From a virus (taxonomy: Duplodnaviria > Heunggongvirae > Uroviricota > Caudoviricetes), in IMG/VR virus record IMGVR_UViG_2617270941_000003, positions 1 through 23,946 of that record: DNA of 23,946 nucleotides, one strand, 5' to 3'. The notes under the pieces were generated by a model. That model was not told the DNA's origin, ran no database searches, and saw only the letters and a list, made by a program, of their open reading frames with translations. Within the stretch, counting starts at the first letter, position 1. Each line of letters starts with the position of its first letter. A program made the position numbers and the translations under genes. Below, piece after piece: positions 702-23,946 of this stretch.

Positions 702-2125
702 TATGCAAGCCTCACAATATAGTTAAATGCGATGTTTTTGACGGTGTTTTCCGCGTTACCAGCAGCGTTAATGGTGATGGTGTGTCCATGTGAACCAATC
801 GCAACGGAGTGCGTATGAGCACCAATACCGACAGTATGTGCATGTGCGCCTGCGCTTGCAGCAGTGCCGGACAGCGAGTGGGTATGAGCACCATCTGATG
901 ATGTCTTCCCTGCATTACGAGTCTGGCCAGTACCGCTTGTTGTGCTCATAATCCCCGCGCTTAGATTTGAAATCGCGGTATAACCATTAGGGAAAATGCT
1001 CGTGTTCGTGCCACCAAATGCACCGGAACTCTTGTGTTGGTGCGCACCGGCACTATTTGCAGTCCCGCTAATACTATGGGTATGCGCCCCGGTGTTATTC
1101 GTGGATTTGGTTCCGTAATCAAACGACGATGTGTTTTTCGTCCCCAAATCCGTACTGGATGCGCTGGCGCTGTGGGTGTGCGATTTAATGCCGTCCTGTT
1201 CCTGAGACAATACGGCACGACCACTGGCGGGTTTGCCCTTAATCGTCCAGCCACGCATATCAGGGATCACGCCTGACGGATAAGCGGCTGCAAGTTTCGG
1301 GTATGCAGATTTGTCAAAAGTCTGCCCCTGCATCAGGGCATAGCCAGACGGAACGGTATCTGATGGCCACGGGATTGGTGCGCCAGGCGGATAAAACTGC
1401 TCTGATGGCGTATAGAGTGAATAAACTGTACCGTCCGTTAACCCTTCCGGCTTATTAGCAGAATATGCTGGTGACGTATGAATCGTCACGCTGGCATTAC
1501 TGGTATAATCCCATTGAATATTTACACCAGTCGCATAATTTCCGATTGCAACGTAAATATCGTAAGTATCACCAGATGTATTGACCCAGGCAAAATTTGT
1601 AAACCCTGTCGATGTGCGCTGCCATAAAGCACCAGTAATCCCCTTCGGATTACCATTACCTGCACGCAAAACAAGTTCAGATATACCTGCCTGTTGAGGT
1701 GACCCCACGTTAAATCCCGCGCCACCAATCAACGTAATTGAAACAACAGAACTCGCCTGTGGCATGGTTACCGTTGCTAATTTGAACCAACCAGCACCAC
1801 CGCTGAATGACATTGTTGTTGAGTTAAGCGTACCAATATCTTTCGGCGTCAGTGTTATATCCGCTGAAAGCGCCTTACCATTCACCTTACGGGCAGAAGG
1901 TAGACTATCTTTAATTTCTCGCTCATACAGCCTTGCTTTATGAATAAAACGCACCCCAGCAGCCAGTGCTACTGGGGACGGAGGTGTTGCTGGTAAAGTT
2001 AGGTATTGGATCAATGAGTGAGTCAACATAATATTAAACTCACAATTATAAATCAGCCATATATTAGGAGCGCCAAAAAAAACCTGAAAACAATATAATA
2101 ACAGGATAAATTTCAAGGCGACCAA
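701..2125 (-). pseudogene. stf: Side tail fibre gene, C-terminal fragment only (5'-truncated stf remnant)
   Basis: The C-terminal part has repeated GAHTHS/GAHQH/GAHAH motifs and ends [11 protein letters not shown], typical of lambdoid Stf C-termini. The N-terminal ~50 codons of the ORF are AT-rich, non-homologous sequence that overlaps the trkG 3' end, so the gene has lost its 5' portion. Confidence 0.7.
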
Positions 2126-3521
2126 GAATCATAGCTATGCACATTAAACATTTTGCAATGTCATTAAGCACTCCGAATGACGATGCAGTAGCCCCAAAAC
2201 CTAATCCCATATTATTAATACATGCAGCCACTGTTGCAAATGATGTAAGAAAATCATATCCCATACCATTTAACACCAGTATAAAAAACACCGTGAAGAG
2301 AGTATAAAGAAAAAAGAAACTCCATACAGACCTCATTACACGATCTGTAACTATCTTCCCTCCTACATTTACACTCAACAACGCTCTGGGATGAGAAAGC
2401 TGATTTATCTCGTGTTTGCTTTGTTTGAAAAGTATAAGAAATCGAAGTGACTTAATTCCACCACAAGTTGAACCTATACATCCCCCAAAGAAACTTGACA
2501 ACAGCAAAAACACTATCGTGTGCGTGGGCCAACTTGCATAATCCTGCGTAGCTAAACCATTATCAGTGAGCATGGAGCTGGCAAGAAAAAACGAATGAAT
2601 AAAACTTCCATGCAAGTCATACATACCTATATGCCAGACCTGGAAAGAGGTAACAATGATCACCCCTAAGGCTATTAACAGAAAGAAACGAAGTTCAATA
2701 TCTCTGATTAAAGGTTTTATCGTTTTCCTGCTAATAACAATATACCAAAGAGTGAAGTTGAAAGCCGATAGCAGGGAAAAAGAACCAGCCACCAGCTCAA
2801 CCAAATAGTTATTAAAATATCCGATACTCTCGCTATGAGTTGAGAAACCACCAAGCGAAACTGTGGAAATCCCGTGACAAATAGCATCAAACAAAGGCAT
2901 TCCTGCAAGTCTATAACAGACAATACAAGCAATACCTAATAAAGAATAAGTTATCCACAGTGTCCGTGACGTATCGGCCAGGCGGGGAGTGAGTTTGTCA
3001 TCCTTAAATGGCCCCGGCATTTCTGACTGATAAAGCTTTGCACCACCAATACCCAATAATGGCAATACAGCAACCGCCAGAACAATAACTCCTAAACCAC
3101 CTATAAAATTTAACTGTGACCGATAGTACAAATATGCCCGAGGTAATGAACTAACATCATCAATTACAGTTGCTCCTGTTGTTGTTATTCCAGAAACCCC
3201 TTCAAACAGAGCATCAATGAACGTTAAATTAAGTTCTGAGTCAATCCATAAAGGGAATGCACTAATAACAGAAAACAAAATCCAAAACATTACAATTATA
3301 ATAAACCCATCACGGGTACGTAATTGAATGCCAGATTTCTTAGTTGTATACCACGCTCCGCCACCAATGCAAAAAAATATAACGAAAGTTATAAAGAAAA
3401 CGAACAGGCTTTTTTCTTTATAAAACAATGCTACAACCATTGGTGGCAACATTGAAAGACTATAGAGCCAAACCAGGAACCCACACATATGAGTAACAAC
3501 TCTTACATGAGATGTATTCAT
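2064..3521 (-). CDS. trkG: Trk-type potassium uptake membrane protein (TrkG/TrkH family)
   Basis: Multi-pass membrane protein. Starting at the internal Met (MNTSHVRVV...) gives 485 aa, the length I recall for Rac-encoded TrkG, and the sequence reads like TrkG/TrkH throughout. Confidence 0.85.
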
Positions 3522-3658
3522 ATCTAAATATTCTTTCAATTATAACCACCTTGCTGCAATATTATGATTATACTGTATAAAATTTAACTCCTCTTAGATC
3601 TTACTTCACTGTTCCTTATGAAACAATCATCAAAATGAATCATATTGTAGTTAAGATT

Positions 3659-4123
3659 TTACTTTAAACACTGCTCGGTTATGTATTGCTGAGCACCTTC
3701 AAGTTGGGCCTGCATCATTACCAGTCGTTCCCGGAGGGTGAAATAATCCCGTTCAGCGGTGTCTGCCAGTCGGGGGGAGGCTGCATTATCCACGCCGGAG
3801 GCGGTGGTGGCTTCACGCACTGACTGACAGACTGCTTTGATGTGCAACCGACGACGACCAGCGGCAACATCATCACGCAGAGCATCATTTTCAGCTTTCG
3901 CATCAGCTAACTCCTTCGTGTATTTTGCATCGAGCGCAGCAACATCACGCTGACGCATCTGCATGTCAGTAATTGCCGCGTTCGCCAGCTTCAGTTCTCT
4001 GGCATTTTTGTCGCGCTGTTCTTTGTAGGCGATGGCGTTATCACGGTAATGATTAACACCCCATGACAGGCAGACGACGATGCAGATAACCAGAGCGGAG
4101 ATAATCGCGGTTACTCTGCTCAT
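3659..4123 (-). CDS. Rz: Rz i-spanin (inner-membrane lysis protein)
   Basis: 154 aa with an N-terminal TM segment and coiled-coil body, near-identical to lambda Rz as recalled. Its start overlaps the endolysin stop. Confidence 0.85.
3718..3903 (-). CDS. Rz1: Rz1 o-spanin lipoprotein, embedded in Rz in another frame
   Basis: 61-aa ORF wholly inside Rz with a lipobox (LVVVGC) and a proline-rich body ([15 protein letters not shown]), the classic embedded Rz1 architecture. Confidence 0.8.
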
Positions 4124-9420: not shown

Positions 9421-11746
<2,326 letters not shown>

Positions 11747-12047
11747 TTTAATTACCTTATATATCCAAACTCTTAATTTTCTCTTTTTTACCATAGGATT
11801 AATCCAAAATAAAGACCTTGTTGACTAAACCCTCATGTACAAAATGCACACTTACTCAAAAGGATCTGGAGGCAATCTCGACCTCCATGATTTAGTTCCT
11901 AGGGATAAGCAGAAATCTAGCACTGGATTAAAATTTAAAAATAATAATCAATAGGTTATAATGGTTTTTATTCGCATCCATGGGATCTGCTGCTGCCCGC
12001 ATGATGTTGGATGCGACGGCGCTGGCACGACCTCACCCGGTGAAACG

Positions 12048-13158: not shown

Positions 13159-13920
13159 TCACTTTTCCGATGCAACATGGCGGGAAGAATCAGTAATCTG
13201 TCGTACAATATCCCTGTGCTTGTTCAACTCACGCAGCGCGGCGCAGACACGCTCCCACTTCTGGACATGATTTTTCGCCCGACGCAGTTCGCGGTTTGCC
13301 ATATGCAGTGATGGTAAAACCAGGTCATCCGCTCGCGTTTCAGTAAACGATGGCAGCGACTGCACAATGTCCGCCACAGTTTCTGTTTTAATATCTTCCT
13401 GTGTTGCAGCCTCCTGTACTGGTAACGCAACACCTGCGGTCTGAGGAAAGGCCTTACCATCAGTTTCCGCTACCGATGCTGCTTTCGGCTCTGCTGGTAA
13501 ATTATCGCCCGGTATGCAGTAACGAAATTTACCGCCCTGATTTACGCGAATCAGACGACCTTTGCTGATTGCCATTGCCAGCGTTGAAGCCACTTTGCGT
13601 GATGTGGTACCAAACAATGTAGCCAGCTCATCAGCCGTTTGTGGTCCTCGTTGTTCAATCGTCGCGGTTAAATCGCACTCTGAGATTTTCGCTACTGTTG
13701 CTGTGGTGATTTCTTCCGGCAGTTCTGCCTGCGCTGGCTGTTCCTGCTGAACATTGTTATCAGCCACACGCCAGGTGTACGCGCTTTTATCAACAAAACC
13801 AGCCTTTTTCAGTTCCCATAGTTCGTTCAGCACTTCTTCACGACTGATATCAAGTCGCGCAGCAAGTTCTATGGATGTGGCTTTTCCCATTGCTTTCAGT
13901 GCGTCAAAAACAGTCTCCAT
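13159..13920 (-). CDS. Hypothetical phage protein with two winged-helix-like segments (about 254 aa)
   Basis: ATG at 13920 with GGGAGA 8 nt upstream (the track ORF extends to 13971 and would overlap the DnaC-like gene). Segments [30 protein letters not shown] and [33 protein letters not shown] look like DNA-binding winged helices. Confidence 0.5.
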
Positions 13921-13942
13921 TAAATTTTTCTCCCGGTAAAAA

Positions 13943-14689
13943 TTACTTCGCAATTCCTGGCTGGACGACATTCGGACGCCAGCTCTCCCAGTTAAAATTC
14001 ACCCATCGCCCGCCGTTCATGGTCATGCGATCCATAATCCGCTCGCCGAGCAATGTTTTCATGGCCTCATAGTTCAGGTTTGTCAGCATCCCCACGCTGC
14101 GCATCGACGCTGTCCGGCGATCAACAATCTGGTGCAGTACCACCTGCTCGTTTTTCGTCTCGCGCTGAATGCCAATTTCATCAAGAACCAGCAGATCCAC
14201 TTCGCACAGTTCCCGCAAAAATTTTTCGCCTGACTGCCCATCGTCATAGCTGGCGTGCAGGGCACTCATAACATCAGCCACGGTAACCACAATCACTGTC
14301 TGACCGTCTTTCAGCAGGCGATTCCCGATAGCTGCCGCTAAGTGGTTCTTCCCGGTACCAGGTTTTCCGCTGAACGCAAAATTTGTACACCCGGTCATCA
14401 GTTCATCAGCGATGGATTTCGCCTGACTCAACGCGTATCGCTGCCCTTCGTTCTGCACCTGGTAATTCGAAAACGAGCATTTGCGGTGCAATGGCTGGAT
14501 GCCAGAGCGATTCAGAATTTTTTCCACCCGCAACTGACGATTCTGACGGTTGATCTCCTCACAACGTTTCTGGCCTTCGGAAAGTTGCCACTCGCGCCAC
14601 TCCGCTACCGTCTTGAATGGCGCGGTTACATGTGACGGGGCCAGTCTGCGGATACGTTCAAGAACATCGCCTGTCGCAATATTTTTCAT
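13943..14689 (-). CDS. ydaV: DnaC/IstB-like AAA+ helicase loader (lambda P-analogous replication protein)
   Basis: 248 aa with Walker [12 protein letters not shown] and Walker B LLVLDEIG. Length and position match Rac YdaV. Confidence 0.85.
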
Positions 14690-14695
14690 GGTCAG

Positions 14696-15553
14696 TTACC
14701 CCCTGAAGCCTGGCGGGATCGCACTATCCGGTAACGAGACGGTGTTAACCTGTCGGAGTAACGTCTCAGGTCGAACACCTTTCGGCGCGAACAAGCCCTG
14801 GTATTCATTGGCGATGCTGTGTCGAATCACCTGCTCAGGTGAAAAACCCTGCTGGCGGAATTTTTCCAGCTCCCGTATCGCCCCGTTAGCGCCCTGCTCC
14901 GTTCGAATCGGTTTTCGCAATGCCTGGCGAAATTCAACCCACTCACGCCAAAGCGAGACAGAAATCCAGTTCGGCAAAGTAATATCCAGAGGGTCAAACT
15001 TTTTGACACCTCGATTCCCCCGGGGGGGATTTAGGGGGGGATCTGTTTTTAGATCTTTATCTGTATCTTTATTAGTTGCCTTTGTGTTGACATCATGTTC
15101 AAACACCACTTCAACATCTGTTTGAACACCTGTTAAATTTCTCTCTTGTTTTGTTTGAACATCTGCTTCCTTTCTGCTTCTTCTGGCCTGAACAGATGCT
15201 TTTCCTGCGGCTGATTTTTTGGTTAATTTTTCCCTGACTGATGCCAGATCTTCCTCAATCCGAAGATGCACCCATTCCTCGCCGTTATCGCAAAAAAACT
15301 CCTGCAAGGATGGTTCAACATCAGCCCATCGCTCGTTAGTCAGACGGGCAATTTTTGCCAGCCTGTTTTTAGGTATTGGCTTTCCTGTTTGCCAGTAATT
15401 GAACATCAGCAACAAATACGCACCATGCTCCTCTGCTGACAAATGCATGGTGTCAGCCAGGTAATCAGCTATGTACAGTTGCATGTATGGTAATGCGGCC
15501 ATAATTGCCCCGTATGATGCTGCCCGGTGGCTTAGAATAAGCACAAACAGCAT
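14696..15553 (-). CDS. ydaU: YdaU-like replication protein (O-like initiator, DUF1376-type)
   Basis: 285-aa ORF immediately upstream of the DnaC-like gene, matching the YdaU length I recall. Contains internal iteron-like repeats and homopolymer tracts. The start is uncertain; an alternative ATG lies at 15502. Confidence 0.7.
   Translation of the reverse strand: MLFVLILSHRAASYGAIMAALPYMQLYIADYLADTMHLSAEEHGAYLLLMFNYWQTGKPIPKNRLAKIARLTNERWADVEPSLQEFFCDNGEEWVHLRIEEDLASVREKLTKKSAAGKASVQARRSRKEADVQTKQERNLTGVQTDVEVVFEHDVNTKATNKDTDKDLKTDPPLNPPRGNRGVKKFDPLDITLPNWISVSLWREWVEFRQALRKPIRTEQGANGAIRELEKFRQQGFSPEQVIRHSIANEYQGLFAPKGVRPETLLRQVNTVSLPDSAIPPGFRG
15096..15161. repeat. Iteron-like 10-bp repeats inside the O-like gene (candidate replication origin)
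   Basis: TGTTCAAACA at 15096-15105 (inverted) and TGTTTGAACA at 15119-15128 and 15152-15161 (direct), each flanked by CATCTG. Lambda's origin likewise sits as iterons inside the O coding sequence. Confidence 0.4.
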
Positions 15554-15728
15554 GGAAACTTTTGCTTAATGAACAATGACAGAATCGTCGGAAGAACCGC
15601 CGCCGCTGAAATGCGCTTTCCGGTAAGGGGTTAAGTAGCCAGCCCGAGGCGTATGAACATGACGGCGGGATTCAAATTTTGCAGTGCAGCAGTTAGTTCC
15701 GCCACCCGGCGTTAAGGGGAGAGATAAG

Positions 15729-15863
15729 ATGGTGCATTACGAAGTAGTTCAGTATTTGATGGATTGTTGCGGTATCACTTACAACCAGGCTGTGCAGGCT
15801 TTACGCAGCAACGACTGGGATCTCTGGCAGGCAGAAGTCGCTATACGTAGCAACAAGATGTGA
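15729..15863 (+). CDS. ydaG: Small protein, probable YdaG homologue (44 aa)
   Basis: ATG with AGGGGAGAG Shine-Dalgarno. Translation MVHYEVVQYLMDCCGITYNQAVQALRSNDWDLWQAEVAIRSNKM. Length and position match Rac ydaG; sequence identity was not checked. Confidence 0.5.
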   Translation: MVHYEVVQYLMDCCGITYNQAVQALRSNDWDLWQAEVAIRSNKM

Positions 15864-15873
15864 GATTCGCAAA

Positions 15874-16029
15874 ATGCAAAAAATCGACCTCGGCAACAAC
15901 GAATCCCTGGTGTGCGGCGTGTTCCCCAACCAGGATGGAACGTTCACTGCCATGACGTATACCAAAAGCAAAACATTTAAAACCGAAACTGGTGCGCGCC
16001 GATGGTTGGAGAAGCACACAGTAAGCTAA
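15874..16029 (+). CDS. ydaF: Small protein, probable YdaF homologue (51 aa)
   Basis: Translation MQKIDLGNNESLVCGVFPNQDGTFTAMTYTKSKTFKTETGARRWLEKHTVS. Follows ydaG after 10 nt; its 3' end overlaps the convergent sieB stop by 4 nt. Confidence 0.5.
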   Translation: MQKIDLGNNESLVCGVFPNQDGTFTAMTYTKSKTFKTETGARRWLEKHTVS

Positions 16030-16514
16030 CGATTAAAACGTCTACTCCTGCTGTTCCAGAATAACTTCATAAAATGGGAGTATTTTTCGGTGACGAGATA
16101 ATAAGAACAGTTTGCGCTATCACTCTGATGTTGAATGATGCCCTTCCGTTCTAATTTTTTCATAACCGGGTTACGGCAAGGAGAAGTGATAATAAGATTT
16201 CCTGTTTTAAGGAAATCTTTAAATACAGCGATTTCTTTCTCAGATAAACGAAGCAATACTCGTTGCTCTGGTAGTAATGAATAATGCTTTTGAATATGTG
16301 CTCGCAATCTTGAGAAGGAAATGGCGACCACGAAAGAAAAGGCAAAAACGATAATCTGAAAGAGCCAAGGTATTTCAGTATAAGCATTGAATGCGACAGT
16401 AAACTCTTTCGGTATCAGCCAGAGAGTGAGACCAAAAATGATAATCGTATACATAAGTCTTTCGAGTGGCTCGTTTGCAAAAAGTTTCAACAATGGAGTA
16501 AATACATCCAACAT
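16026..16514 (-). CDS. sieB: Superinfection exclusion protein B-like membrane protein
   Basis: 162 aa from the internal ATG at 16514 (MLDVFTPLLKLF...), matching the Rac SieB length, with several TM helices. Divergent from kilR as in Rac. Confidence 0.7.
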   Translation of the reverse strand: MLDVFTPLLKLFANEPLERLMYTIIIFGLTLWLIPKEFTVAFNAYTEIPWLFQIIVFAFSFVVAISFSRLRAHIQKHYSLLPEQRVLLRLSEKEIAVFKDFLKTGNLIITSPCRNPVMKKLERKGIIQHQSDSANCSYYLVTEKYSHFMKLFWNSRSRRFNR

Positions 16515-16955
16515 ATCAATAACTCTCAACTGTAAGGGTATTGAAATGTTAACACAAGCTCTCGCTGTAGGGGTATAGCCGAGACCACCGAAGCCCGGAG
16601 GTGGTGAAATAAAACCGGGCACAACACGAAGGCGCATTTCCGATATCCATAAAGAGTCGGTCTTGTCTGTTAAATTTAAATGGTGGGAGTGCGCCTCCGG
16701 TTGTAAATAACGACATTGCTGTGTGTAGTCCTGGCGGCATCAGTTTTTTTCTTGAAGTTCGGCTGATGTCCGCCCTTTTTAAAGTGAATTTTGTGATGCG
16801 GTGAATGCGGCTAAGCGCACGTGGCACAGTTAAAAGTCATGTTAGTCCTTATTGGTTTGGGTGGGAAAGCCGACTGTAATTGTTAACTGGTTGCAGTCAC
16901 CTGGAGGCACCAGGCACCGCATCAACAAAGTTCATTTGTAAAAATGGAGATAATT

Positions 16956-17177
16956 ATGATTGCACATCACTTCGGAACTGATGAAATACCACGTCAGTGT
17001 GTGACTCCTGGTGATTATGTTCTTCATAACGGCCGGACATATATTGCCTCGGCAAACAATATTAAAAAGCGAAAACTTTATATTCGTAACCTGACCACAA
17101 AAACATGCATTACTGACTGCATGATTAAAGTCTTCCTCGGTCGTGATGGTTTACCTGTAAAGGCGGAGTCATGGTGA
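16956..17177 (+). CDS. kilR: KilR, FtsZ-targeting cell-division inhibitor
   Basis: 73 aa from [46 protein letters not shown]..., matching Rac KilR as recalled. Confidence 0.8.
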
Positions 17178-17347
17178 TGACTAAGAAAATAAAATGTGCT
17201 TACCACCTTTGCGATAAAGAAGTTAAAGAAAGCAAAAGCATTAAAAGACCACTTCATTTCATGCGTGGAGTTATCCCAACGACGGAAATGAAAAAATATT
17301 GTAGTGAAATATGTGCCGAAAAAGACCAGATGGCACACGAAATTTAA
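17177..17347 (+). CDS. ydaE: YdaE-like small zinc-binding protein (56 aa)
   Basis: Translation [56 protein letters not shown] with C-x-x-C...C-x-x-x-C spacing. Its start overlaps the kilR stop. Below the ORF-track length cutoff. Confidence 0.65.
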   Translation: MTKKIKCAYHLCDKEVKESKSIKRPLHFMRGVIPTTEMKKYCSEICAEKDQMAHEI

Positions 17348-17421
17348 TTAACTGACTATGCGAAACTGAATTTATGCCAGCAATGGCAGGGATTCGCTCA
17401 ACCTTAATTAAGGAGAAAAAC

Positions 17422-17697
17422 ATGATTACCAGTTATGAAGCCACTGTTGTAACTACTGATGACATTGTTCACGAAGTTAATCTGGAAGGAAAGCGTATTG
17501 GCTACGTGATTAAAACAGAAAATAAAGAAACCCCATTCACTGTGGTTGATATCGACGGTCCATCAGGCAACGTTAAAACACTTCACGAAGGTGTCAAAAA
17601 AATGTGCCTGGTGCATACCGGAAAGAATCTGCCCGCAGAAAAAAAAGCCGAATTTCTGGCAACTCTAATTGCAATGAAATTAAAAGGTGAAATCTGA
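17422..17697 (+). CDS. racC: RacC protein
   Basis: 91 aa from MITSYEATVVTTDDIVHEVNLEGKRIGYVIK..., with AGGAGA Shine-Dalgarno 6 nt upstream. Confidence 0.8.
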   Translation: MITSYEATVVTTDDIVHEVNLEGKRIGYVIKTENKETPFTVVDIDGPSGNVKTLHEGVKKMCLVHTGKNLPAEKKAEFLATLIAMKLKGEI

Positions 17698-17798
17698 AAG
17701 AAATAGCCTGCGTATGGCGCAGGCTATGAACAGTGTGTATCCGGCAAGATCATTCACTGAACAAAACGAATTTTAATCTGAGTTGAGGTTAAAAAACA

Positions 17799-20700
17799 AT
17801 GAGCACAAAACCACTCTTCCTATTACGGAAAGCGAAAAAATCATCCGGTGAACCTGACGTCGTCCTGTGGGCAAGCGACGATTTTGAATCGACCTGTGCC
17901 ACTCTGGACTACCTGATCGTTAAGTCAGGTAAAAAACTGAGCAGCTATTTTAAAGCTGTTGCCACGAATTTTCCTGTCGTTAATGACCTGCCCGCTGAAG
18001 GTGAGATCGATTTTACCTGGAGTGAACGCTACCAACTCAGCAAAGACTCCATGACATGGGAACTAAAACCGGGAGCAGCACCAGACAACGCTCACTATCA
18101 AGGCAATACCAACGTCAACGGCGAAGACATGACTGAGATTGAGGAGAATATGCTACTCCCAATTTCTGGCCAGGAACTGCCCATTCGCTGGCTTGCTCAA
18201 CACGGCAGCGAAAAACCGGTAACGCATGTTTCACGCGACGGACTCCAGGCATTACACATTGCTCGGGCTGAAGAACTACCGGCTGTTACTGCCCTGGCTG
18301 TTTCCCACAAAACCAGCCTGCTCGACCCGCTGGAAATTCGCGATCTCCACAAACTGGTTCGTGACACTGACAAAGTTTTCCCTAATCCTGGTAATTCAAA
18401 CCTGGGACTGATAACTGCTTTTTTCGAAGCATACCTGAACGCTGACTACACCGATCGAGGACTGCTGACAAAAGAGTGGATGAAGGGTAATCGTGTTTCA
18501 CACATCACTCGCACGGCTTCCGGTGCTAATGCTGGCGGCGGAAACCTCACCGATCGCGGCGAAGGTTTCGTACACGATCTGACGTCACTGGCGCGCGACG
18601 TAGCCACTGGCGTACTGGCCCGTTCAATGGATCTGGACATCTATAACCTTCATCCGGCACACGCTAAACGCATTGAGGAAATTATCGCTGAAAATAAACC
18701 GCCCTTTTCTGTTTTCCGCGACAAATTCATCACCATGCCTGGCGGGCTGGATTATTCCCGCGCCATCGTGGTTGCGTCCGTAAAAGAAGCACCAATTGGG
18801 ATCGAGGTCATCCCCGCGCACGTCACTGAATATCTGAACAAAGTACTGACTGAAACCGATCATGCCAACCCTGATCCGGAAATCGTGGATATTGCCTGCG
18901 GTCGCTCCTCTGCCCCAATGCCGCAGCGTCTAACAGAAGAAGAAAAACAGGATGATGAAGAAAAACCGCAACCATCTTGCGCAATGGCAGATGAACAGGC
19001 AACGGCTGAAACAGTGGAACCGGATGCAACTGAACATCATCAGGACACGCAGCCGCTGGATGCTCAGTCACAGGTAAATTCTGTTGATGCGAAGTATCAG
19101 AAACTGCGGGCAGAACTCCATGAAGCCCGGAAAAACATTCCGCCCAAAAATCCTGTCGATGCAGACAAATTACTGGCTGCCTATCGCGGAGAATTTGTTG
19201 AAGGGATTAGCGACCCGAATGATCCGAAATGGGTTAAGGGGATCCAGACCCGCGATTCTGTGTACCAGCATCAGCCAAAAACGGAACAGAACGACCGAAA
19301 ATCGGAACAAAACGGCCAAAATGCGCGACAAAATGAACCAGAAGCGCAACAGGAACCGGAAAAAGTCTGCGCCGCCTGCGGTCAGACCGGCGGCAGTAAC
19401 TGCCCTGACTGTGGCGCGGTGATGGGCGACGCAACATACCAGGAAACATTCGATGAAGAGAATCAGGTTGAAGCTAAGGAAAATGATCCGGAGGAAATGG
19501 AAGGCGCTGAACATCAGCACAAGGAGAACGCTGGCAACCATCCGCATCACGATTGCAGTGATGAAACTGGTGAAGCGTCAGCTCATGTAGCAACTGAAAT
19601 CATGTGGCCATCATATTTCGAGCCTGGCCGCTATGAAAACCTCCCGAGCGAGGTTTATCACTCCGCCAACGGAATAAGCAGCACAATGCTGAAGGATGCC
19701 CGCATCAGTCTGATGTATTACCACGGGCGGCACATTGCCAGGACTATTCCGAACGAGGAAAGTGATGCATTGCTGCGTGGGCGGATCATTCACAGCTATG
19801 TTCTGGAAACGGATAAATTCGCTGATGAATATGCCATTCCGGTACCGGTTCCTGAATATGTGGTTACTACTTCTAACGAACTGATCACCATCATTAAAAA
19901 ACACAATGCCAGTCTGCCATCACTGATGACACCAGAGCAGATGAAAGAGTGGATCGAAAGCTACAACAGCACTCTTATACAGCCACTGTCGGTAAGCGCT
20001 GGGGCCGAAGAAACAGGCATCCTTTACGGTTCGCTTCCGGAGGAATTTCGGCGTATTCCTGAGGGGGAAAAACACAAAGCATCAGCAATGAAAGCCTGTA
20101 TTAAAGAATACAACGCAAGCCTCCCTCCTCTGCTGAAAACCAGTGGAACACGGGAGCAGCTTCTGGAGCAAATTGAAACTGTAGATCCAGAACTGGCAAA
20201 AAAAGAACGTGCTAAATCGTTGCCTTACAACATCAGTGGCACAAAAGAGCAATTAACCGAAATCGCCCGGAAAATTCGCCCGAAACTGGTAACACTGGAG
20301 GATTGGCAAAAACGCCAGCAAGAAGAAAATGCAGGAAAAACGTTTATCAGTCCAGATATGTATGAACAGGCAAAAAATATTCACGCGGCACTGCAAAACA
20401 ATACTGACGCGGCAAGACTACTCAACCACCCGGATCGCAAATCTGAAATCAGCTATTTCGGGTTTGATGAAGAAACCGGGCTGGAAATCAGGGTCCGCCC
20501 TGATATCGAAATCCGACTGCCATACGAAAGCATCTGCGCCGACGTGAAGTCAGTCAGCCTCGGTTATGTGCGGCAAGAACGACTAAAAGATCGCTTACAC
20601 CGTGAAATTATTGAACGTGATTATCACCTGAGCGCCGCAATGTACTGCGATGTGGCAAACCTGGACAAATTTTTCTGGATCTTCGTCAACAAAGATGCTG

Positions 20701-20891
20701 GCTATCACTGGGTGGCTGTCGTGGAAGCCTCGCAGGAACTCCTGGAACTTGGTCGACAGGAATATCGCCGGACGCTACGACAGATAAACGAAGCGCTGGA
20801 GACAAACAACTGGCCAGCACCGATTACCGAAAGTTATACCGACGAATTAAACGACTTTGATCTTCGTCGTCTTGAAGCACTGAGCATCTGA
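17799..20891 (+). CDS. recE: Exodeoxyribonuclease VIII (RecE-like), 1030 aa, with a divergent C-terminal PD-(D/E)XK nuclease domain
   Basis: The N-terminal ~600 aa ([44 protein letters not shown]...) follow K-12 RecE closely as recalled, including the CxxC...CPDC zinc ribbon. The C-terminal domain ([11 protein letters not shown]...RPDIEIR...ADVKSVS) is RecE/YqaJ-like but clearly different from K-12 and longer. Confidence 0.85.
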
Positions 20892-20902
20892 GGAAGGACA
20901 CA

Positions 20903-21955
20903 ATGAACGAATTAACTCAACAAGAAAATATTAACTCTAATGTTGCGGTTTTCAGCCCTCAGTCTCTGACTGCAATTCAGACGTTTTCTCAGGTAATGGC
21001 TTCCGGCATGGCTACTGTACCGGAACACCTCCGAGGAAATCCATCAGACTGCATGGCCATCACCATGCAGGCGATGCAGTGGCAAATGAACCCTTACGCA
21101 GTAGCTCAGAAAACTTTCGTTGTGAATGGTGTGCTCGGATATGAAGCGCAACTGGTTAATGCCGTAATCAGTACTCGTGGGCCGCTAACCGGGCGTATTG
21201 AATATGACTGGTTCGGGCCGTGGGAAAAAATTATCGGGAAATTTGAAATCAGGAAGAACGACAAAGGGAAAGAATATCGTGTACCTGGCTGGAAGCTGGC
21301 CGATGAAAACGGGATTGGAGTTCGCGTCCAGGCAACACTACGCGGAGAGAGCAAACCACGCGTACTGGAGTTACTTCTGGCGCAGGCCAGAACACGTAAC
21401 TCAACGTTATGGGCCGATGATCCTCGTCAGCAGCTTGCCTATCTGGCACTCAAACGCTGGGCGCGCCTTTATTGCCCTGAAGTGATTCTTGGAGTGTACA
21501 CCCGGGACGAACTGGACGAACCACAGGAAAAAATCATTAATCCGGTTCAGGAACATAAAAACACATCCGCCTGCCGTGCGGAACGTGAAACAACAATTAT
21601 TGAGCAGGATGCCGGGGAAAACTGGATCAGTGCTTTCCGTGAACGTATTGAGCAGGCACAAAGCACCGGAGAAACAACAGCACTTCGGCAGGAAGTGGAA
21701 GAGCATAAAAATACACTTGGCGCTCTCTATACGGAACTAAAAGGAAAAGTGGTTCAGCGTCATCACCGTCTCAATGCTATTGCCCGTATTGAGAAGATGA
21801 TAAATGACCTGCCTTCATCAGGTGATCCGGAAGCAGAACAAAAATTTACTGCTCTGGAAAATACGCTGAATACTGCACGACCACATCTGGGAGAATTATA
21901 TGAGGCGTATAAAACGACACTGACAGATATGAAACCAGAATATATCGAACCCTGA
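20903..21955 (+). CDS. Single-strand annealing protein, RecT/Red-beta-like partner of RecE (not the K-12 RecT sequence)
   Basis: 350-aa ORF 11 nt downstream of recE, in the position of recT. No Walker motifs, which argues against a Sak4/RecA-type protein. Family assignment by position and general character only. Confidence 0.55.
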   Translation: MNELTQQENINSNVAVFSPQSLTAIQTFSQVMASGMATVPEHLRGNPSDCMAITMQAMQWQMNPYAVAQKTFVVNGVLGYEAQLVNAVISTRGPLTGRIEYDWFGPWEKIIGKFEIRKNDKGKEYRVPGWKLADENGIGVRVQATLRGESKPRVLELLLAQARTRNSTLWADDPRQQLAYLALKRWARLYCPEVILGVYTRDELDEPQEKIINPVQEHKNTSACRAERETTIIEQDAGENWISAFRERIEQAQSTGETTALRQEVEEHKNTLGALYTELKGKVVQRHHRLNAIARIEKMINDLPSSGDPEAEQKFTALENTLNTARPHLGELYEAYKTTLTDMKPEYIEP

Positions 21956-22018
21956 TATTTACTATGGCGGTGTAGCCTCACCGCCATAACAAAAATTTAT
22001 TATATGAGAGAAAAGACA

Positions 22019-22213
22019 ATGCGGTATGAAAAAGTCAAACCATGTCTATTTTGTGGTTGTCCATCAGTAACGGTGAACGCCATTTCAGGATATTACCGAG
22101 CGAAGTGTAACGGATGCGAATCCCGAACCGGTTATGGTGGAAGTGAAAAAGAAGCACTCGAAAGATGGAATAAACGAACCACTGGAAATAATAATGGAGG
22201 TGTTCATGTATAA
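22019..22213 (+). CDS. ralR: Lar/RalR (restriction alleviation protein and type I toxin DNase)
   Basis: 64 aa from MRYEKVKPCLFCGCPSVTVNAISGYYRAKCNGCESRTGYGGSEKEALERWNKRTTGNNNGGVHV, near-identical to Rac Lar as recalled. Confidence 0.8.
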   Translation: MRYEKVKPCLFCGCPSVTVNAISGYYRAKCNGCESRTGYGGSEKEALERWNKRTTGNNNGGVHV

Positions 22214-22394
22214 AATTACCGCCACTATTGAAAAGGAAGGTGGCACTCCTACTAACTGGACAAGATATTCAAAATCTAAACTAACGAAATCAGAATGCGA
22301 AAAAATGCTCTCAGGTAAAAAAGAAGCAGGCGTTTCCAGAGAGCAGAAAGTAAAACTGATAAATTTTAATTGCGAGAAACTTCAGTCCTCGTGA
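22206..22394 (+). CDS. ydaC: YdaC-like small protein
   Basis: 62 aa from MYKITATIEKEGGTPTNWTRYSK..., with GGAGGTG Shine-Dalgarno. Its start overlaps the lar stop (ATGTATAA). An upstream in-frame ATG at 22194 is also possible. Confidence 0.6.
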   Translation: MYKITATIEKEGGTPTNWTRYSKSKLTKSECEKMLSGKKEAGVSREQKVKLINFNCEKLQSS

Positions 22395-22493
22395 ATTGCA
22401 TTGTATTCAAATTAAAACTTCATAGCTGATTATTAATAATCAACATCGGGCGTCAATTTCAGTCTAACATTGGCGCCTGCCAGAGGTGATGCG

Positions 22494-22709
22494 ATGGCAC
22501 AAGTAATCTTTAATGAAGAGTGGATGGTTGAATACGGCCTGATGCTTCGCACTGGTCTGGGGGCCAGACAAATTGAAGCATACCGCCAGAACTGTTGGGT
22601 GGAGGGCTTCCACTTCAAACGAGTATCTCCTTTAGGTAAGCCAGACAGCAAACGAGGGATTATCTGGTACAACTATCCAAAGATAAATCAGTTTATCAAA
22701 GACTCATGA
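22494..22709 (+). CDS. xisR: Excisionase-like protein (Rac XisR/YdaQ-like)
   Basis: 71 aa ([35 protein letters not shown]...) immediately upstream of the integrase with a 1-nt gap. Confidence 0.7.
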
Positions 22710-22710
22710 T

Positions 22711-23946
22711 ATGTCTAAATTACCAACAGGTGTCGAGATTAGAGGTAGAAACATTCGCATCTGGTTCATGTTTCGAGGAAAACGATGTCGGGAAACATTA
22801 AAAGGCTGGGAGATTACAAACAGTAATATTAAAAAGGCCGGAAATTTAAGAGCGCTGATAGTTCATGAAATAAACTCCGGTGAATTTGAGTATTTAAGAC
22901 GTTTTCCCCAGTCCAGCACTGGGGCAAAAATGGTGACAACGAGGATCATAAAAACGTTCGGGGAGCTTTGTGATATCTGGACAAAAATTAAAGAGACAGA
23001 GTTAACAACAAACACAATGAAGAAAACGAAATCACAATTAAAAACACTCAGAATAATAATTTGTGAGAGCACCCCAATATCACATATTCGTTATAGCGAT
23101 ATCTTAAACTATCGGAATGAACTGCTGCATGGAGAAACGCTTTACCTGGATAATCCAAGATCCAACAAAAAAGGAAGAACCGTGCGCACAGTTGATAACT
23201 ATATCGCCCTGCTCTGTTCGTTGTTACGTTTTGCATATCAGTCGGGATTTATATCAACCAAACCATTTGAAGGAGTAAAAAAATTACAGCGAAACAGAAT
23301 AAAGCCTGATCCGTTATCTAAAACAGAATTCAATGCATTAATGGAAAGTGAAAAAGGACAGAGCCAGAACTTGTGGAAATTTGCCGTTTACTCCGGGCTT
23401 CGTCACGGGGAACTGGCTGCTCTGGCGTGGGAGGATGTGGATTTCGAGAAGGGAATTGTGAATGTCAGAAGAAACCTGACGATACTTGATATGTTCGGTC
23501 CCCCAAAAACAAATGCCGGGATCCGGACGGTAACATTACTACAGCCAGCTCTTGAAGCACTGAAGGAGCAATACAAACTGACCGGGCATCATCGCAAAAG
23601 CGAAATCACTTTTTATCATCGGGAGTACGGCAGAACCGAAAAGCAAAAACTGCATTTTGTTTTCATGCCCAGGATGTGTAACGGAAAACAGAAACCTTAT
23701 TACTCGGTAAGCAGTTTGGGTGCGAGATGGAATGCAGCAGTAAAACGTGCTGGTATTCGCCGCCGTAATCCGTACCATACGCGACATACTTTTGCCTGCT
23801 GGCTGTTGACGGCAGGAGCGAACCCGGCATTTATAGCCAGCCAGATGGGGCATGAAACTGCGCAGATGGTGTATGAAATTTACGGTATGTGGATTGATGA
23901 CATGAACGACGAACAGGTAGCTATGTTGAATGCGCGGTTATCGTAG
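22711..23946 (+). CDS. intR: Tyrosine integrase, lambda Int family (Rac IntR-like)
   Basis: 411 aa. C-terminal catalytic region with R...HxxR...Y context (RHTFACWLL, GHETAQMVYEIYGMW). The N-terminus MSKLPTGVEIRGRNIRIWF is typical of Rac/e14-type integrases. Confidence 0.9.
   Translation: MSKLPTGVEIRGRNIRIWFMFRGKRCRETLKGWEITNSNIKKAGNLRALIVHEINSGEFEYLRRFPQSSTGAKMVTTRIIKTFGELCDIWTKIKETELTTNTMKKTKSQLKTLRIIICESTPISHIRYSDILNYRNELLHGETLYLDNPRSNKKGRTVRTVDNYIALLCSLLRFAYQSGFISTKPFEGVKKLQRNRIKPDPLSKTEFNALMESEKGQSQNLWKFAVYSGLRHGELAALAWEDVDFEKGIVNVRRNLTILDMFGPPKTNAGIRTVTLLQPALEALKEQYKLTGHHRKSEITFYHREYGRTEKQKLHFVFMPRMCNGKQKPYYSVSSLGARWNAAVKRAGIRRRNPYHTRHTFACWLLTAGANPAFIASQMGHETAQMVYEIYGMWIDDMNDEQVAMLNARLS

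Follow-up and report, generated by a model that had tools for sequence, protein, structure and literature searches.

A Rac-type prophage carries a RecE nuclease domain with an insert of duplicated SAP-like modules, exchanged together with its RecT partner

Introduction

We analyzed a recE-like gene and its surroundings in a stretch of 23,946 nucleotides (nt) from a tailed virus (Caudoviricetes; IMG/VR record IMGVR_UViG_2617270941_000003, positions 1 to 23,946), referred to below as the window, which holds a Rac-type prophage with an allele of the recombination module other than that of Escherichia coli K-12. The nuclease domain of this RecE and the adjoining RecT annealase were replaced as one cassette, and the incoming nuclease domain bears an insert of 165 amino acids (aa) which appears to derive from duplicated SAP-type modules and which may help the enzyme to handle DNA. 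We put the probability of this explanation as a whole, that is, cassette, RecE nuclease, duplicated SAP-module insert and DNA handling taken together, at roughly 0.6.

RecE and RecT make up one of the two standard recombineering systems, and to our knowledge the K-12 allele is the only one that has been studied structurally. The window holds a second natural RecET allele at the same prophage locus, present in about 3% of complete E. coli genomes, in which the presumed DNA-capturing loop seems to be made anew of SAP-type modules; relatives differ in how many of these they have.

Results

Nuclease domain and annealase were exchanged as one cassette

The flanks of the recombination module and the gene order of the window agree with those of the Rac prophage at the ttcA site in K-12 and other E. 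coli. The features that define the exchange are the following (window positions and strand):

17799..20891, plus strand: complete recE-like open reading frame of 1030 aa (open reading frame list; Pfam Exonuc_VIII and DUF3799)
17799..19575, plus strand: K-12-like N-terminal part of RecE, aa 1-592, with an acidic linker and CxxC...CxxC at aa 524-539 (blastn 96.1% to K-12 Rac; BLASTP collinear to about aa 600)
19576..21964, plus strand: replaced cassette of 2389 bp without nucleotide similarity to K-12 (blastn gap, junction alignments)
20903..21955, plus strand: RecT-family annealase of 350 aa, swapped along with the nuclease domain (Pfam RecT PF03837, E 3e-43)
21965..23946, plus strand: K-12-like right flank with a ralR/Lar-family gene, the excisionase region and intR, which is cut by the window end (blastn 97.1%; Pfam Lar_restr_allev and Phage_integrase; synteny)

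When the window was compared with K-12 Rac by blastn, positions 15622-19575 were 96.1% identical, no match was found over 19576-21964, and similarity resumed at 97.1% identity over 21965-23946. Junction alignments placed the start of the replaced stretch inside recE at aa 592/593 (between ...CSDETGEA and SAHVATE), a few residues ahead of the nuclease domain, and its end 9 nt past the recT stop; the K-12 counterpart of the cassette comprises 1654 bp (L001 5978-7631). At the protein level (BLASTP), aa 1-360 were nearly identical to K-12 RecE and aa 361-600 were collinear with it, whereas the C-terminal part, about 430 aa in length compared to about 270 aa in K-12, gave only a patchy alignment with 29% identity over 133 aligned residues.

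These comparisons agree with a first-pass annotation of the window, which had described an N-terminal part that tracks K-12 RecE followed by a different and longer C-terminal nuclease domain. Its proposal of a domain swap by recombination within the gene held with respect to the mosaic, for which alignment with K-12 RecE located the breakpoint and revealed a C-terminal region that is not collinear with K-12 at ordinary divergence, but not with respect to its extent: the exchanged unit runs through the whole of recT and is larger than an intragenic domain swap. Because the limits of the cassette span the 3' part of recE through recT, the annealase was exchanged along with its partner exonuclease domain, which fits the idea that both proteins must match; exonuclease-annealase pairs have been described as partner-specific (PMC11611040). 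One or more homologous exchanges between related prophages, in one direction or the other, swapped the 2.4-kb cassette and left the N-terminal region of RecE and the genes on either side K-12-like. That the C-terminal region is the K-12 domain diverged in place by ordinary mutation can practically be dismissed: although the domain is homologous to that of K-12 and shares its fold and catalytic residues, the junctions are abrupt (at 19575/19576 a nucleotide identity of 96% is lost altogether over a few bases, and 97% is regained at 21965), the adjoining recT is replaced too, and versions of the cassette with about 50% protein identity occur in other phages, Gifsy-2 and HK225 included.

Two further observations concern the N-terminal part. 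Phage matches H23-H26, H30-H31 and H39-H40, which start at gene position 1, 306 or 1378, end at gene position 1786/1787 (window about 19584-19585), an indication that modules preferentially meet where the ...CSDETGE segment ends; a recurrent recombination junction at this position was considered and set aside, since at most two downstream types were demonstrable at the exact point. The CxxC...CxxC motif at aa 524-539 (window about 19368-19415) is common to K-12 RecE, as read off the BLASTP alignment only, and in the function-unassigned N-terminal region of RecE it looks like a small zinc ribbon.

Distribution of the cassette and its RecT

The window-type cassette (coverage of at least 80%) was found in 159 of 5426 complete E. 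coli genomes (about 3%; best match 99.2%, strain UMNF18), and all 159 carry the 3' part of recE and RecT together. The K-12-type cassette was present in 1728 of the complete genomes, and pieces of the RecE N-terminal region in 4768. At about 50% identity, the long domain is also encoded in phage records, among them those of Gifsy-2, HK225, Salmonella FSL SP-016, a Klebsiella prophage and an Aeromonas phage. Each of these is annotated as RecE or exodeoxyribonuclease VIII, and Salmonella relatives are labelled Gifsy-1 RecE in protein databases. The gene is already known, being annotated in hundreds of genomes and having named relatives in Gifsy and HK225, and module-sized prophage mosaicism is ordinary. 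The nuclease domain was also seen, at 98% protein and 96% nucleotide identity, in record PP818812.1 (H22, H71), named 'Actinobacillus phage vB_Apl-pPE4', an odd host label given that the sequence otherwise occurs in E. coli.

The RecT gene starts 11 nt downstream of recE. No significant BLASTP similarity was detected between its 350-aa product and K-12 RecT (269 aa), and beyond the Pfam RecT match (aa 30-209) the protein has a long C-terminal extension of about 140 residues. We compared it with the RecT proteins encoded after two other nucleases of different length, P0147, a one-module form with a domain of 332 aa that lies in a Rac-like context adjoining ttcA-type flanks (L004), and P0130, a longer form with a domain of 481 aa (L005). 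These RecT proteins, of 358 and 371 aa respectively, were 59 and 51% identical to that of the window. As the same RecT type adjoins domains of 332, 430 and 481 aa, it follows the clade of the nuclease core and not the number of modules; the notion that RecT type tracks module number was rejected on these grounds.

The incoming domain is a RecE-type nuclease interrupted by an insert

The nuclease domain is divided into the following parts:

19599..19847, plus strand: first part of the nuclease domain, aa 601-683, with the conserved His665 (nt 19791-19793), equivalent to RecE His652 (phmmer to 3h4r chain 5-69; AlphaFold2 predicted local distance difference test, pLDDT, 85-98)
19848..20342, plus strand: insert of 165 aa, aa 684-848, replacing residues ~671-696 of K-12 RecE (jump in the PDB alignment, MAFFT, AlphaFold2)
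20343..20891, plus strand: PD-(D/E)XK catalytic core, aa 849-1030 plus stop, with RPD at 20496-20504 (D902) and DVK at 20541-20549 (D915 and K917)

In Pfam, the core matched DUF3799 (PF12684) at aa 843-1007 with an E value of 2e-13 (51.2-54.9 bits, cut-off 26), and a match to PHROG 607/412 exonuclease was obtained with an E value of 3e-125. The sole match of a phmmer search against PDB sequences was 3H4R, the nuclease domain of K-12 RecE (E 5e-6), in two pieces that pair query residues 618-686 with chain 5-69 and residues 881-1011 with chain 126-253. Overall, the incoming domain is about 25-29% identical to that of K-12 RecE. RecE His652 and the PD...DxK motif have been described as catalytic (PMC11611040), and residues H665, D902, D915 and K917 aligned with RecE His652, Asp748, Asp759 and Lys761 in both phmmer and BLASTP. 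In an alignment of 71 homologues (A1), the R, D, D and K columns were invariant and the H column nearly so. A profile match, the RecE nuclease fold, the catalytic residues, an Exonuc_VIII N-terminus (PF06630 at aa 2-178, E 8e-98, in the Pfam scan) and a downstream RecT gene were thus all found, and E. coli genomes annotate near-identical genes as recE or exodeoxyribonuclease VIII. As far as alignments and structural models go, they show a genuine RecE-fold PD-(D/E)XK exonuclease with an intact H...D...DxK active site, for which a toroidal tetramer and processive 5'-3' exonuclease activity on double-stranded DNA are assumed by analogy with K-12 RecE (PMC11611040).

The core motifs had been pointed out in the first-pass annotation and do lie where it put them (RPDIEIR at aa 900-906, ADVKSVS at aa 914-920). 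Its label 'YqaJ/RecE-type' was retained in its RecE half, in agreement with DUF3799; the YqaJ half was dropped because the Pfam scan of the RecE protein listed no YqaJ family. Membership in the YqaJ/lambda-exonuclease group was likewise rejected, the closest fold match being RecE and not lambda Exo.

The position of the insert was defined in two ways. The PDB alignment leaps across it from query 686/chain 69 to query 881/chain 126, and a MAFFT alignment with K-12 and insert-free relatives resolved a single insert at aa 684-848. K-12 RecE is a ring tetramer in which residues 665-698 form rim loops around the wide entrance; these loops, disordered in the crystal, are presumed to capture double-stranded DNA (PMC11611040). 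By alignment, the insert falls within this rim loop.

The insert consists of four repeated helix-loop-helix units

Comparison of the insert with itself and with its homologues resolved four units:

19869..19967, plus strand: module a', aa 691-723, degenerate SAP-like helix-loop-helix, the earlier repeat 1 (predicted helices 692-705 and 712-723; aligns with module a)
19968..20054, plus strand: module b', aa 724-752, more degenerate than the other three (paired with module b by the self-alignment; predicted helix 736-744)
20067..20189, plus strand: module a, aa 757-797, SAP-like, the earlier repeat 2 (hhalign to SAP profile 93.7%, E 2e-7; predicted helices 761-774 and 785-795)
20190..20294, plus strand: module b, aa 798-832, SAP-like and basic (+5, isoelectric point 10), the earlier repeat 3 (hhalign 97.4%, E 1e-11; MAFFT)

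Three repeats of about 40 aa had been proposed from the letters of the window, with motifs at aa 702-719 (nt 19902-19955), aa 771-792 (nt 20109-20174) and aa 806-826 (nt 20214-20276) of one intact open reading frame. In composition-preserving shuffles, repeats 1 and 2 resembled each other far beyond chance (Smith-Waterman score 54, z 8.8, 0 of 2000 shuffles), as did repeats 2 and 3 (score 44, z 5.5, p 0.001), whereas the similarity of repeats 1 and 3 taken alone stayed within chance (z 0.9). None of 300 shuffles reached the best self-score of the entire insert. When a profile of 23 insert homologues was aligned with itself, aa 684-755 matched aa 753-835 with an hhalign probability of 96.4% (E 1e-9). 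The repeats are therefore real and lie where they had been placed, but they are unequal and number four, module b' having been missed. On these profile comparisons, the insert is a tandem duplication of a double module that yields four helix-loop-helix units. A hidden Markov model built by hand from the three earlier repeats found the same three positions in homologues; it was overfitted and was replaced by the profile comparisons.

Similarity between the units is kept across homologues. The insert measures 165-171 aa in 23 homologues with identity down to 20%, the asparagine helix caps N703, N723 and N772 are invariant in insert homologues over the same range, and motif positions are conserved across about 30 representatives. 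Structure prediction of the C-terminal region with AlphaFold2, which the first-pass annotation had suggested, returned the expected helix pairs at high confidence for the whole domain as well as for the insert by itself (pLDDT 89.8, predicted template modelling score 0.68). At the DNA level, the repeat search gave only one pair of 27 nt with 70% identity; since the repeats are barely detectable there, the duplications must be old, and a recent duplication was rejected. The only other DNA-level repeat, reported by Tandem Repeats Finder, is a 24-nt unit (1.9 copies, 86% matches) at window 20370-20414 in the nuclease core just past the insert; it falls in a helix region, is unrelated to the insert repeats and is probably coincidental.

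The modules appear to derive from a SAP domain

A search of 1.8 billion cluster representatives retrieved 3630 relatives at an E value of at most 0.001. Among the 102 top matches that cover both domain ends, domain lengths were multimodal (~270-295, 312-333, 380-405, 430 and 478-481 aa). We made simple counts, per domain class, of a cap motif (the helix end 'h-N-x-x-L') and of an SG motif ('SG(T/S)(K/R)xxL'):

Short-form domains: cap motifs 0, SG motifs 0
Domains of ~330 aa: cap motifs 0, SG motifs 1
Window-type domains (430 aa): cap motifs 3, SG motifs 2
Longest-form domains: cap motifs 4, SG motifs 2-3

Motif copies among relatives thus range from none to about seven. Several one-module relatives are recognized by the Pfam SAP family PF02037, whose gathering score is 23.9 bits: P0258 scored 47.8 bits (E 1e-12), P0239 37.1, P0252 35.4 and P0231 25.4. 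These Pfam-positive single modules occupy the same site in alignment A1, and MAFFT sets module b opposite the single module of P0141, P0147 and P0154. Against a SAP profile of the one-module relatives, modules a and b of the window reached hhalign probabilities of 93.7% (E 2e-7) and 97.4% (E 1e-11), respectively, and module a' alone gave no significant match. Homology to SAP through intermediate sequences at the same position was thus found for modules a and b. A SAP origin is well supported for modules a and b, as judged by profile similarity, and indirectly supported for a' and b', which are linked to them via the internal duplication. A SAP-type helix-loop-helix module was most likely duplicated to a double module and then to a tandem double module, the two distal units degenerating and the last one being basic. 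The helix-extended loop-helix fold of the insert is a predicted one.

Pfam run on the insert alone gave only SAP-like hints below threshold, and Foldseek with the insert model found nothing in the PDB (E above 2). The structural and evolutionary description given here is very likely correct.

In the MAFFT alignment, the inserts that some RecE-type relatives, among them P0188 and P0177, have in this loop are unrelated to the SAP modules; that of P0188 has short repeats of its own ('KPENQNLKPSDK...' twice). Judged from these alignments, the rim loop accepts more than SAP modules.

Other regions of the prophage

Between window positions 4104 and 13470 lie about 9.4 kb that K-12 Rac lacks. They include a cluster of three genes on the minus strand (9421-11794):

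10766-11794, minus strand: adenosine deaminase (PF00962; PADLOC CARF_ADA-like, E 3e-36)
10215-10769, minus strand: Ham1/ITPase family (PF01725)
9421-10215, minus strand: stand-alone SIR2-like protein (PF13289; PADLOC ThsA-type SIR2, E 9e-32)

By its domain content, this cluster looks like candidate anti-phage cargo of the prophage. On either side of the 9.4 kb, window 1901-4103 (trkG region) and 13471-15626 (ydaU/ydaV region) are 99.9-100% identical to K-12 Rac. In K-12 these near-identical segments abut directly (L001 15201/15202), so that K-12 Rac looks deleted for the intervening DNA. The recE N-terminal stretch adjoining the ydaU/ydaV segment (15622-19575) is only 96% identical to K-12, and from such comparisons the window prophage itself looks like a patchwork.

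Discussion

Possible function of the insert

In a ring tetramer with its loops at the wide entrance, four inserts would place sixteen small helical hairpins where the duplex enters. In this presumed ring the modules would form a crown around the duplex-DNA entrance and would help the enzyme to grip or orient the duplex end. Module b is the best candidate for a DNA contact because it lies nearest to the core, is shared with the one-module relatives and is the only basic module; the acidic modules upstream of it would serve as a spacer or stalk. By analogy with K-12 RecE and with SAP domains, we consider a DNA-handling role of the insert to fall slightly short of an even chance.

Several points weigh against this reading of the insert. 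The insert has a net charge of -1 in the window and of -2 to -11 in homologues, with an isoelectric point of about 4.7-5.5, and according to its composition everything outside module b is neutral to acidic. This acidity makes a DNA-gripping role for all four units doubtful; it argues against a simple scheme in which more SAP means more DNA binding, and leaves room for a spacer or for protein docking. The window sequence stays below every Pfam SAP threshold (SAP_new25 E 0.041, 13.9 vs 26.3 bits; Ish1 E 0.097). Duplex DNA binding by the modules is something we infer by analogy, and their placement around the channel is likewise taken over from the description of K-12 RecE.

A broader version of the DNA-handling role may be envisaged, in which the rim loop of the RecE family is a plug-in site where SAP modules have been amplified (from 0 to about seven motif copies), tuning the capture and hold of duplex ends. 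We regard this extension as speculative and rather improbable. If it were true, the four-module crown would confer an end preference or a processivity measurably unlike that of K-12 RecE, the coexistence of two cassettes at one E. coli prophage locus would be explained, and engineers of recombineering enzymes would gain a simple handle.

Two other functions of the insert have to be weighed. In the first, it would be a docking platform for a protein, either the cognate long RecT, host SSB or the N-terminal region of RecE, with the SAP-like hairpins reused as an acidic surface. Such a role would suit the net acidity of the insert in nearly all homologues, its prediction as a confidently folded helical unit and not as beads on a string (pLDDT 89.8-96), its co-occurrence with the distinct 350-aa RecT that bears a long C-terminal extension, and the partner specificity described for exonuclease-annealase pairs (PMC11611040). 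We nevertheless consider docking unlikely, since the same RecT type (51-59% identity) stands beside nucleases that differ by about 150 aa at the insert site (332, 430 and 481 aa), the insert site is the presumed DNA-capture loop (PMC11611040), and the conserved module nearest to the core has a basic charge and corresponds to a canonical SAP domain of relatives.

In the second, the insert would lack a specific function, the rim loop being permissive and fast-evolving and its repeats changing neutrally or under surface pressure from host defence. K-12 RecE works without the insert (PMC11611040), active-looking homologues have a loop with zero to several modules, and some relatives such as P0188 fill it with unrelated repeats. 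Against this, the length of the four-module form hardly varies (165-171 aa), and its asparagine caps are invariant and its motif positions conserved in homologues down to 20-30% identity, a constancy that indicates purifying selection, and the duplications are old, without a DNA-level repeat. Absence of function thus appears somewhat less probable still than docking.

If the modules handle duplex DNA, the poorly understood role of the RecE rim loop would become directly testable, and transplanting modules could alter substrate preference. If they do not, the case would come down to ordinary prophage mosaicism together with an old repeat expansion in a tolerant loop. The relevance is modest, mainly for those who study or engineer RecET.

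Comparison with known systems

The searchable literature yielded no report connecting SAP modules with RecE-type nucleases, and we met with no account there of the insert in the Gifsy, HK225 or FSL SP-016 proteins, none of the RecE rim loop as a variable insertion site or as filled by an array of duplicated SAP modules, and none of the exchange of nuclease domain and RecT as one cassette at this locus.

The closest known system is RecE (3H4R)/RecT of K-12 Rac, with which the window shares the locus, the gene order, the N-terminal 592 aa (96% at the nucleotide level), the catalytic His/Asp/Asp/Lys and a RecT-family gene immediately downstream. It differs from K-12 in a nuclease domain that is only about 25-29% identical, in the 165-aa four-module insert that replaces K-12 residues ~671-696, and in a RecT of 350 aa without BLASTP similarity to the 269-aa RecT of K-12. 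RecE of Gifsy-1/Gifsy-2, HK225 and FSL SP-016 is about 50-52% identical to the window over the whole 430-aa domain, insert included, and close representatives at 49-54% identity have the same motif layout; in FSL SP-016 the match overlaps or adjoins a RecT annotation. The N-terminal regions of relatives at about 50% identity were different or strongly diverged where compared, a comparison to which those of Gifsy, HK225 and FSL SP-016 did not belong. The one-module relatives (P0147 in L004, P0239 and P0258) share the insertion site, and their module aligns with module b of the window; P0147 also belongs to the same nuclease clade and has the same RecT type. They carry one module instead of four, and P0239, P0258, P0252 and P0231 reach the Pfam SAP family, unlike the modules of the window.

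Lambda exonuclease and YqaJ are, like the window protein, members of the PD-(D/E)XK superfamily and 5'-3' exonucleases of an exonuclease-annealase pair, but the active site of the window protein is the PD...DxK variant with a histidine, as in RecE. A SAP domain is also found in FAN1, together with a nuclease domain, in Ku70, as a C-terminal SAP on a DNA-encircling ring, and in Ydc2/Cce1, together with a resolvase. Their likeness to the window RecE would lie in a SAP-type helix-extended loop-helix on an enzyme acting at DNA ends or junctions, and they serve as analogies for the way in which such a module could assist in positioning duplex DNA; homology is limited to the SAP motif, and their SAP domain is a single-copy terminal or flanking one, whereas that of the window RecE forms an array inside the nuclease fold.

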